A stretch of DNA of 64,000 bases from Planctomycetota bacterium (GTDB lineage Bacteria; Planctomycetota; Planctomycetia; Pirellulales; Lacipirellulaceae). The translations under genes and the position numbers were made by a program. Shown piece by piece: positions 5,180-57,075 of the stretch. Where the stretch lies: contig JBCDJN010000002.1 of assembly GCA_039414355.1 (NCBI GenBank), positions 42,443 through 106,442 of the forward strand, in the 5' to 3' direction. The notes under the pieces were generated by a model, which saw only the letters and a program-made list of their open reading frames with translations, ran no database searches and was not told the DNA's origin. Positions within the stretch are counted from its first letter, which is position 1; the number at the start of each line of letters is the position of its first letter.

Positions 5180-7309
5180 ATGTCAACCATCCGCGATGAG
5201 CCCGCCGAACTGCCGCTCGAGCTGCTCCAGCAGATCGACGAGCGTTGCGACCGGTTTGAGGCGGCGTGGAGCGATGGCGAGGCGCCGTCGCTGGGCGGCT
5301 ACGTGGAAGACGCGCCCGCCCCGATCCGCGACCGGCTGCTCCGCGAGCTGCTGGCCATTGAGCTGGAGTACCGGCGGAACGACGACGGCCAGCGGCTCAC
5401 GGCCCGCCAGATCGTCGCGCTGCACCCGGCGCTCAACCAGGCGATCGCCGAAGAGTTCTGCCGGATGCCCACCATCCGCAGCGACCCGGCGCCCTCGCGA
5501 GCCGACGACCCGGCCGCAAGCGGCCTGCACATCCGCTGCCCCCACTGCCGCAACCAGGTTGAGCTGCTCGACGACACGCCGCTGGACGAAGTCACGTGCC
5601 GGACCTGCGGCAGCGCCTTCACGCTGGTCGGCGACGACTCGCCCGATGGCGAGGTGTTCACGCTCAAGCAGGTCGGCCGATTCGAGCTGCAGTCGCTGCT
5701 GGGCGCCGGCGGCTTCGGATCGGTTTGGCGGGCGCGGGACACAGAGCTCGACCGGCTCGTGGCGGTCAAGATCCCCCGCCGCGGCAGCGTGAGCCGAACC
5801 GAGGCGGAGCTGTTCCTCCGCGAAGCCCGGGCCGCCGCCCAGCTTCGGCACCGCAACATCGTGCCCGTGCACGAGGCGGGCCGCGACGGCGACACGCTGT
5901 TCATCGTCAGCGACCTGATCGAAGGCGAGCCGCTCTCCGTACGACTCGAAGGCCCGCGGCCCGCCTACCGCGAGACCGCCGAGCTGCTCGCCAAGGTGGC
6001 CGACGCGCTCGCCGCCGCCCACACGCTGGGCATCGTCCACCGCGACCTCAAGCCGTCGAACATCATGCTCGACCACGCGGGCGAGCCCTACCTGATGGAC
6101 TTCGGCCTCGCCAAGCGGCAGTCGGGCGAAGTCACCATGACCGTCGACGGCCAGGTGCTCGGCACGCCGGCGTACATGTCGCCCGAGCAGGCGGCCGGCG
6201 AGACCAAGTGGATCGATCGGCGGACCGACCTCTACTCGCTCGGCGTCGTGCTGTTCCAGATGCTAACGGGCGAGCTGCCGTTCCGCGGCAACCTGCAGAG
6301 TCAGATCCGGCAGCGGCTGGAAGACGACGCCCCGAGCGCCCGCCGGCTGAACGACCGGGCGCCGCTCGACCTAGCGACCATCTGCCAGCGCTGCCTCGAA
6401 CGCGACGCCAATCGCCGCTACGCCACCGCTGAGCAAGTGGCCGACGAACTGCGTCGCTACCTCCGCGGCGAGCCAATCCAAGCCCGGCCACTCTCGAGGC
6501 CGCAACGGCTGGGGCGCTGGGCGCGTCGGCATCCGACGCTGGCGACGGCGATCACGCTCGCCGGCGTGCTGGCGGTCGTTGGCCCGGTGGCGGCGATGGT
6601 GATCGAAGGCCAACGGCGGGCCCTCGCCGAACGGCTCGCCGAACGCGACGAGCTGCTCCGCCGCACCAACAGCGACATCGAGACCGCGCAGCAAACGATC
6701 GCGTCGCTCCAGGCGAAGAACCAACAACTCCAAACCGCCGTGCCCCTCGACCAAGCGCCGCCCGATTGGCGACGTGCGCTAGCGCGTGACTACCTATCGG
6801 ATCACTTGGACGAAGCGCTGGCCAACCTTGATCGGCTCGACCAAGACGAGGCGTGGCTCAAGGGCCAGCTCGGGCTCGGCCAACTGCTAAGCCTCGCCGG
6901 GCGGCCGGACGAGGCGCTCCAGCGGTTCAAGCTCGCCGACGAGTGGTTCGATAAGCACCCAGCCCACGCGCTCCGCGTGGCGTGCTTAGAGAGCCTCCGC
7001 GACCTTGCAACCGAGATCGGACTCGAAGACGAGGCACGCGCGTACGCCGCGGAGCTGGTCGCCGTCCGCAAGGTGGCGACCGACGCCGATGTCGCCAGTC
7101 GAACCGAGCTACTCGGCACGCTGATCGATAACGCGCGACGCCAATCCGCCGACGCGTCGAGTGACTCGCTCACCGCGGCGCGCGAACTCGCCGCCGCCCG
7201 CGATGCGTTGCGTGAAGCGTGGTCGGCCGAGCCGGGAGCGGTGGCCGAGGTCGCGGCGGCGCTGGCGCCACGCGGCGCGGTTCAGTCGCCACCTTTGCCT
7301 GACGAGTGA
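5180..7309 (+). CDS. Ser/Thr protein kinase (Hanks type) with N-terminal zinc ribbon, TM helix and C-terminal helical-repeat region
   Basis: 709-aa ORF. Kinase motifs are [26 protein letters not shown] and [16 protein letters not shown]...CRTCGS lies upstream of the kinase domain. A TM segment ([23 protein letters not shown]) follows it. Confidence 0.9.
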
Positions 7310-8519: not shown

Positions 8520-9112
8520 ACGCTGCCGGGCAACGAACTGCTAACTTGGCAAGCAATTCGCCGGTGACAGCGGCAGAATCTCAAGATTTTTCTCGGTGCT
8601 GGGTTCCGCCTCACTCAGCGTTGCGATTTCGCACAGCCGCGTCTCAGATCAGGACTGCGGCCAGGGTGCTTCTGTCTCTATCTGATGCAGCCCTACAAAA
8701 TCCGCCCTTAATGGCGTGCTGTAAGCGTTCTGATTGGCTTGTACTGGGGTGATTGTCGCCGTACTATCGCCACAGTCCTGGTCGCCACAGCTTGTTGGAA
8801 CCGGCAGCGGCGGTTGGGACGGCCCCCGTATCGGAGGGGGCTAGCGACCGCCGGGACGGGGTTTGCCCAGGCATCCCCCTTTGAGCGGCCATCGCGAGGT
8901 TGCAGGCCTTGCGATGGAGCGAGTCCCGGCGGACCTGCTGGAGGCCTGGAGAGGCGCTCACCAGTTGAAGGTTGGCGACGCCGCGGCCTAGGGAGCCGTG
9001 TCGGAACCGCCCTCGGTTAACCGGTGGGAGTGCCCTCGCGGAAGAGCCGCGCCCTTGCCACCGCTCGTCCCCCCGATTCTCTTCTCACGGAACAAGAGAC
9101 GGAGGCTCCGAC

Positions 9113-9760
9113 ATGAGCGTGTCCGATAACCTGAGCGCGAACCCGGTGTACAAGTCCGGCTTTGGCCACCCCGCCGTGCCGCCCGAAACCACCGCGCAGC
9201 CGTCGCCGCCCGCCGTGCCCCATGGGGCGTTGGACGAGACGGTTGACGACCGCGGCGCCGCGCCGCCAAGTAAAGCGGCGGGTCGGACGTCCGCCTCGTC
9301 CGAGACGGCCCTTCACCGCATCGCCGAGGTTCGGCGTCGGCAAGGGGTTTCGGTCCGCAGCGCCGCCCGACGAATGGGCGTTCCGCCCGAGCAGGTCCGG
9401 CAGCAAGAGATCGCCTCGGCGGACATTCGCCTCTCAGACCTCCACCGCTGGCAACGAGCGCTCGACGTTCCCGTGAACGAACTGCTCGTCGAGCAGGACT
9501 CGCCGCTCTCCGGCCCGGTGATGAGCCGCGCCCGGATGCTGCGGGTGATGAAGACGGTGCGAGCGATCGCCGAGTCGAACTCGGACCCTAGCGTTGGCCG
9601 GCTGACATCGATGCTCGAAACGCAGCTCTTGGAGATCATGCCCGAGCTGCAAGAAGTGGGCGCGTGGCACTCGGTTGGCCAGCGGCGCACGCAAGACGAG
9701 ATGGGCCGCGTCGCCGAGCGGCCGGTCTCCGATAACTTCGCCAGCGACGGCCTGAAGTAA
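9113..9760 (+). CDS. helix-turn-helix (XRE-like) domain protein
   Basis: The ATG at 9113 is preceded by ggagg (9101-9105). The central segment IAEVRRRQGVSVRSAARRMGVPPEQVRQQEIASADIRLSDLHRWQRALDVPVNELL has the XRE/Cro-type HTH layout. Confidence 0.7.
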   Translation: MSVSDNLSANPVYKSGFGHPAVPPETTAQPSPPAVPHGALDETVDDRGAAPPSKAAGRTSASSETALHRIAEVRRRQGVSVRSAARRMGVPPEQVRQQEIASADIRLSDLHRWQRALDVPVNELLVEQDSPLSGPVMSRARMLRVMKTVRAIAESNSDPSVGRLTSMLETQLLEIMPELQEVGAWHSVGQRRTQDEMGRVAERPVSDNFASDGLK

Positions 9761-17400: not shown

Positions 17401-18608
17401 TCGAAGGAGGAAGGCAGAAGGCGGAGGGCGGAACGACGCGCAGGCGACGCGGCAACACCTGCGCGCGCAACCACCGGCGACCCGCCTTCCGCCTTCCACC
17501 CTCCGCCCTCGCGTTGCTTCTACTGCTGCCGCTGTGCGGGTGCTTTCCCGGTTACCTCGAAGAGCAGTACGGCCGGAGGAGCGGCGTTTGGTCGGACAGC
17601 ATCAACGGGACCGCGGTCCTTGGCAAGATGATCGAGAAAGCCGGGCACAAGGTCCGGTCGGTCGATCGCCTCTACCCGAAGGTCGGCAACGCCGACGTGA
17701 TCGTTTGGTTCTGCGACGACTTCGGCGCCCCCTCGGCCGAGGCCCGTCAGTGGCTCGACGATTGGCTGCTGCTCAGCGACGAGGCGAAGACCCTGGTCTT
17801 TGTCACCCGCGATTACGAGGCGGGCGCCCTGTACTGGTCCGAGATGCAGAAGACCGCCCCGGCGGGCCTGCAGAAGACCCTCGGCAATGAGCGGCGGCAA
17901 TCGCAAACGCGGTTCAACCAGTACCGCGGCGGCGCGCCGGTCACCGACGCCGCCGGCGACTGGTTCACCACCGACCGCCGCACAACAACGCGCACCATCC
18001 AGCAGCTCTCCGGCCCGTGGGCCAAGGGCGTCGACGCCAGCAAGACGCAAATCGAACACCGCGCCTACCTCACGCCGAGCGACGAGGCGGACTTCCTGCT
18101 CGCCGACGAGCGCGGCCATCCGTTGGCGAGCGAGATCGTCTACTCGGGTGAGTCTTGGCAGACGAACGTGAAAGACTCACGGGTCGTGATGATCGAGAAC
18201 GGCGCGTTCCTGCTCAACGGCGCCCTCGTCAACAAAGAACACCGCAAGCTCGCGGGCAGGCTCGTGGATCACCTTGGGCCGCCGAAGCTCAACGTCGTGT
18301 TCCTGGAGTCGGACAGCGACCCGCCGGTGCTGGCGGACGATCCCTCCGTGGGCCCCGCCAGCGCGTTCAAGCACCTCACGCTATGGCCCATTGGCGCGCC
18401 GATCGTGCAGGCCCTGGCGCTCGGCGTGGCGTACGCGGCGTTCCGCTGGCCGATCTTCGGCCGGCCCCGCCGAGGGGAAGAAGCCTCGCTGACCGACTTC
18501 GGCCGGCACGTCGAAGCGGTGGGCCGGCTCCTCGCCGCCACCCGCGACCGCACGTATGCTGACGCCCAACTGCGGGCGTACTTCCAGGCGGCGCGGGAGA
18601 AGGACTAA
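17397..18608 (+). CDS. DUF4350-like lipoprotein
   Basis: The GTG at 17397 overlaps the upstream stop (GTGA). The N-terminus is Arg-rich and is followed by a lipobox-like LLLLLPLCGC. The body (VIVWFCDDFGAPS...TLVFVTRDYEAG) resembles DUF4350. Confidence 0.8.
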   Translation: MIEGGRQKAEGGTTRRRRGNTCARNHRRPAFRLPPSALALLLLLPLCGCFPGYLEEQYGRRSGVWSDSINGTAVLGKMIEKAGHKVRSVDRLYPKVGNADVIVWFCDDFGAPSAEARQWLDDWLLLSDEAKTLVFVTRDYEAGALYWSEMQKTAPAGLQKTLGNERRQSQTRFNQYRGGAPVTDAAGDWFTTDRRTTTRTIQQLSGPWAKGVDASKTQIEHRAYLTPSDEADFLLADERGHPLASEIVYSGESWQTNVKDSRVVMIENGAFLLNGALVNKEHRKLAGRLVDHLGPPKLNVVFLESDSDPPVLADDPSVGPASAFKHLTLWPIGAPIVQALALGVAYAAFRWPIFGRPRRGEEASLTDFGRHVEAVGRLLAATRDRTYADAQLRAYFQAAREKD

Positions 18609-53910: not shown

Positions 53911-54051
53911 CGCCTTGAGTCAGGAGTCTCGACTCCTCGGGACGCCAACCTCTATTGCCGCCCCACCGCACAGTGGTAGGCTTAGCGTACCGCTCGCTGC
54001 GCCCGTTCGCCTGCCGCCCGCCCGCCGCGTCCCTCGCTCTTGGCATCCTCC

Positions 54052-55482
54052 ATGAAGAAGTACGACTGCATCGTCATCGGCACCGGACCCGCCGGCCAGA
54101 AGGGCGCCATCCAGGCCGCCAAGCTGGGCCGCAAGGTGGCGGTGATTGAGAAGAACAACGTGCTCGGCGGCGCCCAGGTCAACACCGGCACCATCCCCAG
54201 CAAGGCGCTTCGCGAAGCGGTGATGCACCTCACCGGCGCCAACAAGCGCGGCCTCTTCGGCGAGAGCTACCGCGTGAAGAGCAACGTCACCGTCAGCGAC
54301 TTGGCGGCCGTCTCGCAGCAGGTCATGCGGCACGAGTGGGACACCATCCGCAACCAGTTTGACCGCAACGAGATCGACCTGATCTGGGGCGCCGCCCGCT
54401 TTGTGGGACCGAACCACATTGAGGTCGATTCGCCCGACGGCATGCAGACGCTCGAGGCCGACCGCTTCCTGGTGGCCGTCGGCACCCGGCCCGCTCGGCC
54501 GCCGCACATCCCGTTCAACGGGACCACCATCTGCACCAGCGACGACATCCTGCACATGGATCACATCCCCAAGACCATGATCGTGGTCGGCGGCGGTGTG
54601 ATCGGCACGGAGTACGCCTGCATCATGGCGACCCTCGGCATCCGCGTCACGCTCATCGAGGGCCGCAGCGAAGTGCTTGGCTTCCTCGATAAAGAGATCA
54701 CCGGCGCCTTCCAGTACTTCATGCGGCAGCGCGGCATCACACTCCGGCTGGGCGAGAAGGTGGAGAGCATCAAGGAAATCGACGCCCCGGAGAATGGCGC
54801 CGGCAACGGCAACCGGCCGAAGAAGCTTGTCGAGGCCTGCCTGGAGAGCGGCAAGTGCCTGAAGGCGGAGACGCTCCTCTTCGCCGTCGGCCGGCAGGGC
54901 GTCTGCGGCGCGCTGGGGCTGGACGCGGTGGGCATCGAGTTCGACGACCGCGAGCGGCTGCACGTCAACGAGCACTACCAAACCAGCGCCGAGCACGTGT
55001 ACGCCGCGGGCGACGTGATCGGCTTCCCGGCGCTCGCCTCAACCAGCATGGAGCAAGGCCGCCGCGCCGTGTGCCACGCCTTCGGCGTGTGCGACGTGCG
55101 GAACTACAACACGGAGCTGTTCCCCTTCGGCATCTACGCCGTGCCCGAGATCAGCATGGTGGGCAAGACCGAAGAGGAGCTCACCCGAGACGGCATCCCC
55201 TACGAAGCCGGCATGGCCCAATTCCGCGAGATCGCCCGCTGCCAGATCATGGGCGAAGACCAGGGCATGATGAAGCTGCTCATCCACCAGGACACGCACG
55301 ACATCCTGGGCGTGCACATCCTGGGCAACGGCGCCACGGAGCTGGTGCACATCGGCCAAGCGGTGATGGCCCTGGGCGGCACGGCCGAGTTCTTCATCGA
55401 CAACGTCTTCAACTGGCCCACCCTCGCCGAGTGCTACAAAGTGGCCGCCTACAACGGGCTGAACAAGCTGAACCACGTCTGA
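54052..55482 (+). CDS. sthA: soluble pyridine nucleotide transhydrogenase (flavoprotein disulfide reductase family without redox cysteines)
   Basis: MKKYDCIVIGTGPAGQKGAIQAAKLGRKVAVIEK is the FAD motif. GGAQVNTGTIPSKALREAV replaces the CxxxxC disulfide, as in SthA. The second dinucleotide motif is MIVVGGGVIGTEYA. Confidence 0.88.
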   Translation: MKKYDCIVIGTGPAGQKGAIQAAKLGRKVAVIEKNNVLGGAQVNTGTIPSKALREAVMHLTGANKRGLFGESYRVKSNVTVSDLAAVSQQVMRHEWDTIRNQFDRNEIDLIWGAARFVGPNHIEVDSPDGMQTLEADRFLVAVGTRPARPPHIPFNGTTICTSDDILHMDHIPKTMIVVGGGVIGTEYACIMATLGIRVTLIEGRSEVLGFLDKEITGAFQYFMRQRGITLRLGEKVESIKEIDAPENGAGNGNRPKKLVEACLESGKCLKAETLLFAVGRQGVCGALGLDAVGIEFDDRERLHVNEHYQTSAEHVYAAGDVIGFPALASTSMEQGRRAVCHAFGVCDVRNYNTELFPFGIYAVPEISMVGKTEEELTRDGIPYEAGMAQFREIARCQIMGEDQGMMKLLIHQDTHDILGVHILGNGATELVHIGQAVMALGGTAEFFIDNVFNWPTLAECYKVAAYNGLNKLNHV

Positions 55483-55503
55483 GCTGGTAGTGGCTCTTAC
55501 GGA

Positions 55504-55545
55504 GGTAGGGAGATCGGGGGGATGAGTTGGGGATAAGGGGGATGG
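55504..55545 (+). repeat. left arm of a 42-nt G-rich inverted repeat (G-quadruplex-capable on the plus strand)
   Basis: ggtaGGGagatcGGGGGGatgagttGGGGataaGGGGGatgg has four G-runs of at least 3 with loops of 5, 7 and 4 nt. It lies 22 nt after the sthA stop. Confidence 0.8.
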
Positions 55546-55726
55546 CGTTCGCCAGTTCTTCACTCGCCTCAGCTGGCGACTTGGGGTAGCACAAGCCGAT
55601 CGCTGCTGTTCAGGGTGCGGTGCACACTGGCGGCAAGAATGCGGCTTTGTCGAGGGAGTTTCTGGCGACACCTATTGCGGCGACTGTCTCGCGCTGGCGA
55701 AAGCTCATCGGCGGCCGGCCGTCGCT

Positions 55727-55939
55727 TTGCCATCGCAATCGCCGTTGGGCAGCCAAGGGTCAGGCGCAATCGATCCAAATCCGTACACGGCGCCAGTCTT
55801 CAACGACCAAGCATGTCGCCTGTGCGGGGTGGTGCAAGCAAGCGAACAGTTGCACTTTTTTACCAGCGATCGCGCTATCTGCTTCAACTGCACTGAGCAA
55901 GGCTTAGCACTGTTGGCGAAGCAGACGTCGACCGGCTAA
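55727..55939 (+). CDS. mini-protein with ClpX-type C4 zinc ribbon and NPYTAP motif
   Basis: 70-aa ORF with a TTG start. CRLC-x18-CFNC has the same CxxC-x18-CxxC spacing as the ClpX N-terminal zinc-binding domain. DPNPYTAPV lies upstream of it. The ORF is in a lower-GC islet. Confidence 0.45.
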   Translation: MPSQSPLGSQGSGAIDPNPYTAPVFNDQACRLCGVVQASEQLHFFTSDRAICFNCTEQGLALLAKQTSTG

Positions 55940-56026
55940 AGCTTGCAACGCTACGGCCGCGTGCTGCGTGCTCAAGACAAACAGCTCGCTCTCCGCATCG
56001 ACAGCTGGCGTAGCCCCGTCAGTGGG

Positions 56027-56068
56027 CCATCCCCCAATCCCCAGCGTCATCCCCCCGATCCCCCTACC
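56027..56068 (-). repeat. right arm of the G-rich inverted repeat (G-rich on the minus strand), overlapping the last codons of the desaturase gene
   Basis: The minus strand reads ggtaGGGGGatcGGGGGGatgacgctGGGGattGGGGGatgg. About 37 of 42 positions match the left arm. It encodes the desaturase C-terminus ...TVGGSGG*. Confidence 0.8.
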
Positions 56069-57075
56069 GTAGCCGAACCCGGCGCCCGGTCCGTCATCAG
56101 CTCGCGCATCACGCCGTCGTAGCCCTTCGTGACGTGGGCCGTAGAGCGGTAGTGCTCGTCGTCCATCAGTTCGCGGTGCAGCTCGGCGAGTCTTGGGCCC
56201 GGCACGCTGGGGAAGAGGTGGTGCTCCAGGTGGTAGTTGACGCCCACCGGGGAGATGAAGAGCCGCTCCCACCAGCGGGGGAGCACCGTCCGCGTGGCGC
56301 GGATCTCCTCGGCGTTGTCCACGCCGATGTGCTCGGCCGTGGCCCGGATGCGCATCGAGAGGTTCACCACCGTCAGCCCCGGCAGCAGGTAGACCGCCAC
56401 CACCGCCGCCGCCTGCCACGGCGCGGTGGAGAACCACCAGCCGAACAGCGCGTAAACCGCCGCGATGTTGAGCACATAGATGATGCGTGTGTGAAGCGGG
56501 AACGCCGGCGTGACGGGGCCCCACAAGTGCAACGCCGGCGACCACTGCTTGAACATCACGATGCCGCGATAAAAGTTCAGCCCGGTGAGACTCCGCACCA
56601 GCGTCCAATAAAACGCGGCGCGGGACTTCGGCCACTCGAACCACTCGCGTTCGGTCTTCTGGGCGGCGAGGTCGGGGTCTTCGTCCGTGTTCGTGTGGCG
56701 GTGGTGGGCGAGGTGGGTCTTGCGGTACAGCCCGGTCGACATGCCGATGGGGAACGCCAGGAAGAGGTCGCTGACCAGGTCGTTCAACCACTTGGTGCGG
56801 AAGAGCGAGTAGTGCACCGCCTCGTGCACCAGCACGCCCATCGCCACCTGCCGGGACCCCACCACCAGCCCCGCCGGGATCATCACCCACCAGTAGGGCA
56901 TCCAGCAGACGAGCGTCATCGCTAGCACCAGCGGCGCCCAGACTTCGAGGATCAGCCCCACACTCCGCAGCGGCCGCACCGCCGAGAGCCGGCGGACCGT
57001 CTCTGTGTGCGGCGCCCGCGGGTATCGGGCTGTGGGAGCGATCGCGTCGGGCGAAATCTCGGCGGAGATGGTCAT
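56047..57075 (-). CDS. membrane fatty-acid desaturase
   Basis: 342-aa ORF with three His boxes (HEAVHYSLF, HLAHHRHTN, HLEHHLFPSVP) and TM helices. Confidence 0.92.
   Translation of the reverse strand: MTISAEISPDAIAPTARYPRAPHTETVRRLSAVRPLRSVGLILEVWAPLVLAMTLVCWMPYWWVMIPAGLVVGSRQVAMGVLVHEAVHYSLFRTKWLNDLVSDLFLAFPIGMSTGLYRKTHLAHHRHTNTDEDPDLAAQKTEREWFEWPKSRAAFYWTLVRSLTGLNFYRGIVMFKQWSPALHLWGPVTPAFPLHTRIIYVLNIAAVYALFGWWFSTAPWQAAAVVAVYLLPGLTVVNLSMRIRATAEHIGVDNAEEIRATRTVLPRWWERLFISPVGVNYHLEHHLFPSVPGPRLAELHRELMDDEHYRSTAHVTKGYDGVMRELMTDRAPGSATVGGSGG

Follow-up and report, generated by a model that had tools for sequence, protein, structure and literature searches.

What is the 565-bp islet that separates two convergent genes, sthA and a gene of the fatty-acid-desaturase family, in a planctomycetotal genome, and what do the G-rich inverted repeats at its two ends do? 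The islet lies in the 64,000-nucleotide stretch analysed here (the window), which is G000:C2:42443-106442, G000 being the source genome (a 5.33-Mb assembly in 239 contigs; contigs are given below as C and a number, genomes as G and a number). An earlier reading made from the letters alone (the sequence-only reading) had offered three explanations of the repeats: paired G-quadruplex (G4) elements of gene 3' ends, terminal inverted repeats of a small non-autonomous insertion, and arms of an invertible or recombinogenic segment. The second of these is favoured by the results described below. We put at roughly 55 per cent the probability that the islet represents one member of a dispersed family of insertion cassettes with terminal inverted repeats at their ends, similar to miniature inverted-repeat transposable elements (MITEs) or mobile insertion cassettes (MICs). 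The cassette family is previously uncharted and is found in a few Planctomycetota lineages. The islet consists of three parts (for the subtypes and the profile, see the next section):

55504-55546, plus strand G-rich: left terminal arm, subtype B, beginning (T)ACGG-GGTAGGG; profile match G000:C2:97946-97988, E = 1.3e-6
55547-56025, no strand assigned: interior (cargo) segment, GC 0.61, found nowhere else in the genome and without similarity to the 28 other interiors
56026-56068, minus strand G-rich: right terminal arm, subtype B; profile match G000:C2:98513-98463, E = 1.1e-8

A genome-wide family of inverted arms

The repeat search returned 55504-55546 (+) and 56026-56068 (-) as an inverted repeat with arms of 43 nt, 479 nt apart and 79% complementary without gaps; when two 1-nt gaps were allowed, 39 of 42 aligned positions were identical. 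The 22-mer GGTAGGGRGATCGGGGGGATGA, common to both arms, occurs exactly twice in the window, as opposed to 0.00 occurrences expected from 100 shuffles, and has eight near-matches in the source genome. These values show that the inverted G-rich arms are real. Their similarity extends beyond generic G-runs, as the non-G letters common to the two arms include the GAT behind each G-run, GGTA, GATC and GATGA.

A search of the source genome for further copies with an iterated nhmmer profile yielded 63 arms, 58 of which form 29 inverted pairs. In all 29 the G-rich strand reads inward (+/- order). The pairs span 72-1599 bp, mostly 150-300 bp, with interiors down to 15-28 nt, and the genes around them may be convergent, tandem or divergent, each arrangement being about equally common. 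Five of the 63 arms are unpaired, one of these at a contig end.

The arms are 45-65 nt long and consist of phased units, each about 9 nt in length and four or sometimes five in number, in which GG.GAT is near-invariant (GGNGAT x4). By position, the unit consensus is aAGGrGAT, nnGGGGAT, GyTGGnGAT and nrGGGrGAT-Gg, and that of the whole arm is (T/G)ACGGTA-AGGRGAT-NNGGGGAT-G(ACG)YTGGNGAT-NRGGGRGATGG. About 18 of the 63 (long-form arms) have a fifth run, CGGGGC, further inward. Two subtypes can be distinguished. Subtype A, dominant in the source genome, has the spacing GAT-GTTGG, and subtype B, to which the window pair belongs, has GATGACGYTGG and starts with ACGGTAGGG. The subtype B start contains GTAG at the outer end of the arm, the corresponding sequence of subtype A being mostly GGTAAGG or AGAAGG. 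Hybrid pairs, with one arm of each subtype, are present on C36 and C98. Elsewhere in the window (17403-17510) there is a purine-rich/pyrimidine-rich inverted repeat, GAAGGAGGAAGGCAGAAGGCGGAGGGCGGAA ... TTCCGCCTTCCACCCTCCGCCCTC, whose G-rich arm is also directed inward; it has no GGNGAT and no match to the profile.

Two elements, C87 and G001:C108 (861 and 860 bp), have near-perfect terminal repeats of 47-49 nt (47/47 and 47/48 identical), whereas terminal-repeat identity in the other elements is 75-90%; this spread represents a range of element ages. The core identity of partner arms was 0.753, compared with 0.711 for shuffled partners (p = 0.003), a slight excess that is due to shared subtype.

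Comparison of the interval between sthA and the desaturase gene in relatives, which the sequence-only reading had suggested, revealed an empty site. In the congener G003 the two genes converge, their stops being about 27 nt apart, and arms are absent. In G004 a different arm pair, of 207 bp, directly follows sthA, and G001 and G011 have no arms there. For 18 other elements of the source genome the 240-nt flanks were joined and searched in four congeners, and contiguous flanks, that is, empty sites, were detected for C21, C120 (in two genomes), C36 and C73; C89 and C69 were apparently empty as well, by match-coordinate arithmetic only. Since further copies and an empty site were both found, the feature can be regarded as real, and the 63 dispersed arms, the empty junction in G003 and the four additional empty sites favour the reading as a small non-autonomous insertion with terminal inverted repeats.

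Four genomes (G000, G001, G002 and G004) have arms in abundance; in G003 they are rare, and a few other genera of the family have them sporadically. Outside the family, one further Planctomycetota metagenome-assembled genome (MAG) of the GTDB representatives and seven metagenome contigs were found to contain arms, always with the same paired architecture. In JBCBPC010000020.1 (L061 4762-7344), from another Planctomycetota MAG, three intergenic gaps in a row, all within 2.6 kb, each contain an arm pair (226, 244 and 220 bp), so elements can frame consecutive genes there. In the source genome about half of the 29 pairs lie no more than 2.5 kb from a contig end (counted by eye), compared with about 22% of the genome that is so close; the contigs carrying pairs include C44, C98, C110, C118, C120, C147, C153, C167, C206, C214 and C225. 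The arms or the low-GC cargo may disturb assembly or coverage, and may in this way be linked to assembly breaks in MAGs.

The copy between sthA and the desaturase gene

The remaining features of the locus are as follows:

54040-55482, plus strand: sthA (Si-specific NAD(P)+ transhydrogenase), left flanking gene; NCBIfam NF003585, 611.6 bits against a cut-off of 465
55525-55726, plus strand: upstream part of the open frame of the 70-aa open reading frame (ORF), with a first CxxC...CxxC pattern and no in-frame ATG, GTG or TTG
55727-55939, plus strand: 70-aa orphan ORF with a TTG start, an NPYTAP motif and then a zinc-ribbon-like CxxC-x19-CxxC pattern; from the ORF list
56013-56018, minus strand: fifth G-run on the side of the right arm, CGGGGC, lying about 9 nt further inward (GATGGC-N9-CGGGGC); from reading the sequence
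56047-57075, minus strand: gene of the fatty-acid-desaturase family, right flanking gene; Pfam FA_desaturase, 138.9 bits

With these scores (611 and 139 bits) the names originally given to the two neighbours hold, and so do the positions of the arms at the gene ends. The left arm starts 21-22 nt past the sthA stop (55482), and its four phased units are GGGAGAT / CGGGGGGAT / GAGTTGGGGAT / AAGGGGGAT-GGC. The profile match of the right arm reaches over 56021-56071. This arm holds the end of the desaturase ORF (...TVGGSGG*), of which it encodes the last six residues (V-G-G-S-G-G) and the TGA stop. The C-terminal tail that follows the conserved RELM (window 56047-56090) differs in every congener whose orthologue was read (G001, G002 and G003). 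The arm-encoded tail in the source genome shows an element rewriting the 3' end of a gene.

The islet had been described as visibly A/T-richer than its surroundings. The difference in overall composition is modest, with a GC of 0.61 in the interior and 0.66 in the genome, and the contrast becomes sharp in coding sequence, where GC at third codon positions (GC3) is 0.64 in the interior ORF and 0.92-0.93 in both flanking genes. The 70-aa ORF that had been called zinc-ribbon exists at 55727-55939 and has the Cys pattern, but no homologue was found in Pfam, in the PDB or in a word-indexed protein search. Its stop-to-stop frame is 137 aa long (GC3 0.64), with the first start codon at 55727. As the frame continues upstream without a stop, across a second Cys pattern that has no start codon, decay of a cargo gene is suggested: the 70-aa ORF is a putative cargo gene, probably decaying, and segment 55525-55726 may be its decayed 5' part. 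The likeness between the two Cys motifs of the frame was not significant (E = 4.3). No sigma-70-like promoter was found in the interior of the islet, no terminator-like site of the intrinsic (hairpin-plus-U) type in 55400-56150, and no match to an Rfam family at the locus.

Cargo, shared sites and proposed mobility

Among the interiors of the 29 pairs no similarity was detected by blastn or tblastx, and comparison with the whole genome gave only unrelated repeats of about 30 nt. One interior (G000:C18:49437-49643) contains two inverted copies of a separate repeat of about 30 nt (GACCGCGAATGACGCGAATA), which is present also on C148, C41, C81 and C3. The long interiors hold ORFs with a GC3 of 0.57-0.82, compared with 0.81-0.94 in the flanking genes. 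Domains recognized in the cargo of the source genome are MUG113/T5orf172 with a weak HNH_repeat-like (homing-endonuclease-associated) N-terminus, Peptidase_S9 and DUF5063; in relatives, LEM-3-type GIY-YIG, PDDEXK_3 and HIRAN were found. Most elements carry no nuclease, or nothing. Both elements with near-perfect terminal repeats encode proteins of the GIY-YIG superfamily, that of C87 being HNH_repeat-like plus MUG113 and that of G001:C108 being LEM-3 GIY-YIG, which is suggestive.

Arms are present at six orthologous sites in two or three species (C110, C147, C36, C21, C30 and the sthA 3' end), and the interiors at these shared sites have no similarity in DNA or protein. At the C110 site three genomes have three unrelated interiors, of 579, 580 and 584 nt. 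In a GTDB MAG and a metagenome contig, which are about 86% identical in DNA, the whole element including a PDDEXK_3 gene is conserved; the arms of this pair are just 71-74% identical, yet all GAT triplets are kept. Because cargo is still homologous at about 86% identity, and the flanks shared by the source genome and its congeners are 71-91% identical, a range that takes in this value and lower ones, the comparison suggests that unrelated interiors at shared sites are more likely the result of replacement than of drift. Next to the G001 element at the site orthologous to that of C36, the upstream gene has its final ~60 nt in two copies (G001:C1:7901-7960 vs 8964-9181, 92% identical), with about 1 kb extra between them, which may represent a second insertion event. 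The C43 site, considered as a case of a gene replaced by a 72-bp element, turned out to be a difference in gene order.

The complete unit of arm, interior and arm is located between the sthA stop and the desaturase 3' end, which are spaced about 27 nt apart in the congener. If the islet is such a cassette, the interior would be cargo, here the zinc-ribbon-like orphan ORF, probably decaying. The arms would be sequence-specific recognition sites, most likely a phased binding array for a putative transposase- or recombinase-like protein supplied in trans, and would act neither as G-quadruplexes nor as an RNA stem. Together, the small excess of identity between partner arms, the retention of GAT, the lack of a wobble bias, the unfolded state of single arms and the small number of arms with four runs of at least three G (see below) point to sequence-specific recognition of a phased array, for which a protein is a simpler explanation than base pairing or G-quadruplex formation. 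The mechanism would leave no target-site duplication and would either tolerate any interior or permit interiors to be exchanged, since no two copies share contents and the contents of the same site differ between species.

Several observations weigh against an insertion cassette. Direct repeats of 2-9 nt, which would be evidence of target-site duplication, were not in excess around the 29 pairs at any offset of 0-21, and the near-perfect elements C87 and G001:C108 were also without a flanking duplication. No transposase or recombinase was found inside or beside any pair of the source genome; a few relatives were inspected, and an autonomous partner may exist elsewhere. The Y1/RAYT-like loci (PF01797, Y1_Tnp; RAYT, tyrosine transposase associated with repetitive extragenic palindromic, REP, sequences) of G000, G002, G004 and G011 have no arms alongside, and the RAYT-like gene of the source genome is flanked by a different REP family, CGCGACCGTCAGGGAGTCGG. 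Each of the two GIY-YIG-type cargo genes is present as a single copy, and neither was detected in the other congeners with arms. Base-exact insertion ends could not be fixed from alignments of filled and empty sites, the congener spacers being too diverged. At shared sites the arm subtype follows that of the genome in which it resides, which is not predicted by simple vertical inheritance. As the 29 interiors are all unrelated, there is, unlike in MITEs, no sign of recent copy-and-paste of whole elements. The family thus fails two defining features of MITEs and MICs, namely target-site duplication and a shared interior or cognate insertion sequence (IS).

Leads to a mobilising agent were tried and rejected. 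Unpaired arms were considered as the ends of larger autonomous elements, but no transposase is encoded within 4 kb of them. GIY-YIG/MUG113 cargo was abandoned as a common mobilising enzyme on account of the single-copy, unshared genes mentioned above. A link to RAYT or TIRYT transposases, a lead taken from PMC3733652, was dropped because the Y1_Tnp loci of five genomes lack arms and the gene of the source genome has its own REP family. The latter locus (G000:C26 ~5590-6270; L033 1224-1906) comprises a 145-aa RAYT-like HUH gene with the motif HVRTNHVHVV and a weak Y1_Tnp match, flanked by the REP-like palindromes GAGCCGCGACCGTCAGGGAGTCGGC / GCCGACTCCCTTACGGTCGCGGCTC; it is a classical REPtron, distinct from the GGNGAT arms.

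Alternative readings and related systems

Two of the alternatives assign the function of the arms to nucleic acid structure. In one of them each arm is an RNA or DNA G-quadruplex at the 3' end of the adjacent gene, acting as a terminator or stabiliser, and pairs arise only where genes converge. The arms of the window are indeed capable of such folding by score, the best 25-nt G4Hunter windows reaching 2.32 (left) and 2.24 (right) with a family median of 1.96, and the canonical motif (G3+ N1-7 x4) fits the left arm and fits the right one if a single loop of 8 nt is accepted, as the sequence-only reading had stated. This capability does not extend to the family, in which only 10 of the 63 arms have four runs of G3+ and the GAT triplets in the loops are more conserved than the length of the G-runs. 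Similarly, both window arms have their G-runs on the sense strand of the gene beside them, but orientations in the family are mixed: between tandem or divergent genes, the sense strand of the neighbour is the C-rich one for one arm or for both, or the arm lies upstream of that gene. With flanking genes in mixed orientations, a 3'-end element acting on the sense strand does not describe the family as a whole. Pairing, which is seen in 58 of the 63 arms, is not what independent 3'-end elements would show; the same gene ends exist in congeners without arms. Single arms have predicted folds of 0 to -1.2 kcal/mol, which are not more stable than those of shuffled sequences. With the scarcity of single arms and the lack of a hairpin-plus-U terminator, the proposal of paired G4 3'-end elements does not extend to the family, and we regard it as highly improbable. 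Still less credible is that the two arms pair in the transcript, forming a G:C-rich stem around the interior that would be processed by RNase III, block translation of the cargo or act in the manner of the 5'-3' fold-back of hok mRNA. Joined, the arms can form a stem of -45 kcal/mol (z = -11 against shuffles), and several cargo ORFs start shortly after an arm with Shine-Dalgarno-like GGAG sequences and ATG codons. However, partner arms are barely more alike than random members of the family (see above), typical pairs carry 20-25% mismatches, and the purine-purine differences have no strand (G.U) bias (summed absolute plus-minus difference 40, against 58.7 expected; p = 0.99). Selection for an RNA stem is unsupported, as partner arms show no compensatory or wobble pattern; no Rfam family matches.

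The other two alternatives retain the arms as sites of recombination. In the first, the arms are docking or boundary sites at fixed chromosomal positions, where segments are swapped by recombination at or between arms in the manner of a dispersed integron, or where arms insulate horizontally acquired genes. In its extreme form they would be universal, orientation-free docking sites at fixed slots, an integrase-less dispersed analogue of the integron through which species would trade unrelated small genes, a good many of these nuclease-like, at the same intergenic positions, a putative protein reading the four phased GGNGAT units; inward-facing G-rich arms might favour breakage and repair at the centre. 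The six shared sites with unrelated interiors, the three interiors of nearly equal length at C110, the signs of replacement rather than drift, the hybrid subtype-A/subtype-B pairs and the lack of target-site duplication all speak for exchange, and we treat it as possible, though unlikely, in the general as well as in the extreme form. Against it, the arms have no linked integrase or recombinase, there is no direct evidence of exchange, and the empty sites lack both arms, which means that the frame itself comes and goes; a preference of a mobile element for occupied sites or hot spots could explain the pattern equally well. In the second, the pairs are invertons, the arms being crossover sites for a master invertase encoded elsewhere, and flipping of the interior switches promoters toward either flanking gene. 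Many loci with one inverted-repeat consensus, interiors of about 70 to 800 bp and arms tight against the flanking genes would fit such a system, and the multi-locus invertons of Bacteroides have a similar broad architecture. Known inverton repeats are, however, 10-30 nt long, whereas the arms measure 45-65 nt and contain four direct sub-repeats; some interiors measure only 15-28 nt and others contain complete genes, no sigma-70-like promoter was found in the interior of the islet, no contigs with the alternative orientation were found, no invertase is adjacent to the pairs, and between congeners it is whole elements that are present or absent. We therefore consider invertons very unlikely.

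The insertion cassette thus remains the favoured reading, and several known systems resemble it in part. With integron cassettes and attC sites the elements share small, promoter-poor, often orphan genes, imperfect inverted repeats with a centre of variable length, and different cassettes at the same position. They differ in being dispersed and not arrayed and in having the gene inside the inverted repeat and not beside it; no integrase or attI is evident, although no systematic search for intI was made, and the R''/L''-L'/R' boxes (RYYYAAC / GTTRRRY) were not noticed in the arm consensus. Free-standing homing-endonuclease cassettes, such as the intergenic GIY-YIG/HNH genes of T4-like phages, are likewise polymorphic for presence or absence, located exactly between gene ends and free of target-site duplications, and several of the cargo genes described here belong to the GIY-YIG superfamily or to the PD-(D/E)XK nucleases. 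Those cassettes, however, lack conserved terminal inverted repeats; most elements here have no nuclease, and the nuclease genes are single-copy and unshared among arm-bearing genomes.

TIRtrons, which are associated with TIRYT tyrosine (HUH) transposases, are reported to have G-rich terminal-repeat motifs, and Rhodopirellula baltica is cited as rich in such repeats (Di Nocera et al. 2013, PMC3733652). Like the repeats of the REP/REPIN-RAYT and TIRtron systems, the arms are short and extragenic and occur mostly as inverted dimers, for which no target-site duplication is expected. The GGTAGGG at the outer end of subtype B arms may correspond to the GTAG tag at one end of such units; subtype A arms mostly have another sequence there. 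In contrast to those repeats, a single arm is not palindromic and has no fold of its own, the spacers between arms are highly variable and can hold genes, and the Y1/RAYT-like genes that were found are not flanked by arms.

In its behaviour the family resembles MITEs and MICs. Both are non-autonomous elements between inverted repeats of IS or Tn type; MICs in addition contain passenger genes but no transposase, examples being MIC231 from Bacillus cereus and MICs of Tn3 type in Xanthomonas (PMC4337579). Terminal inverted repeats, the lack of an internal transposase, dispersed multi-copy intergenic occurrence, presence/absence polymorphism and a range of repeat ages are common to both classes and the present family, which shares variable passenger genes with MICs. 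It departs from both in having no target-site duplication, in that no cognate autonomous IS was found, in repeats composed of four phased 9-nt direct sub-repeats, and in different contents at the same site between species; and, unlike a MITE family, which shares its interior, it has 29 unrelated ones. These departures, together with an arm subtype that is specific to the genome, break the ordinary rules of MITEs. Mobile DNA of Planctomycetota is poorly charted, and the signature of four phased GGNGAT units in inverted pairs, which could be mistaken for regulatory G4 motifs, is easily searchable. If a protein that reads the arms is found, it would reveal either an uncatalogued bacterial transposition chemistry or a cassette exchange that shapes the accessory genome.

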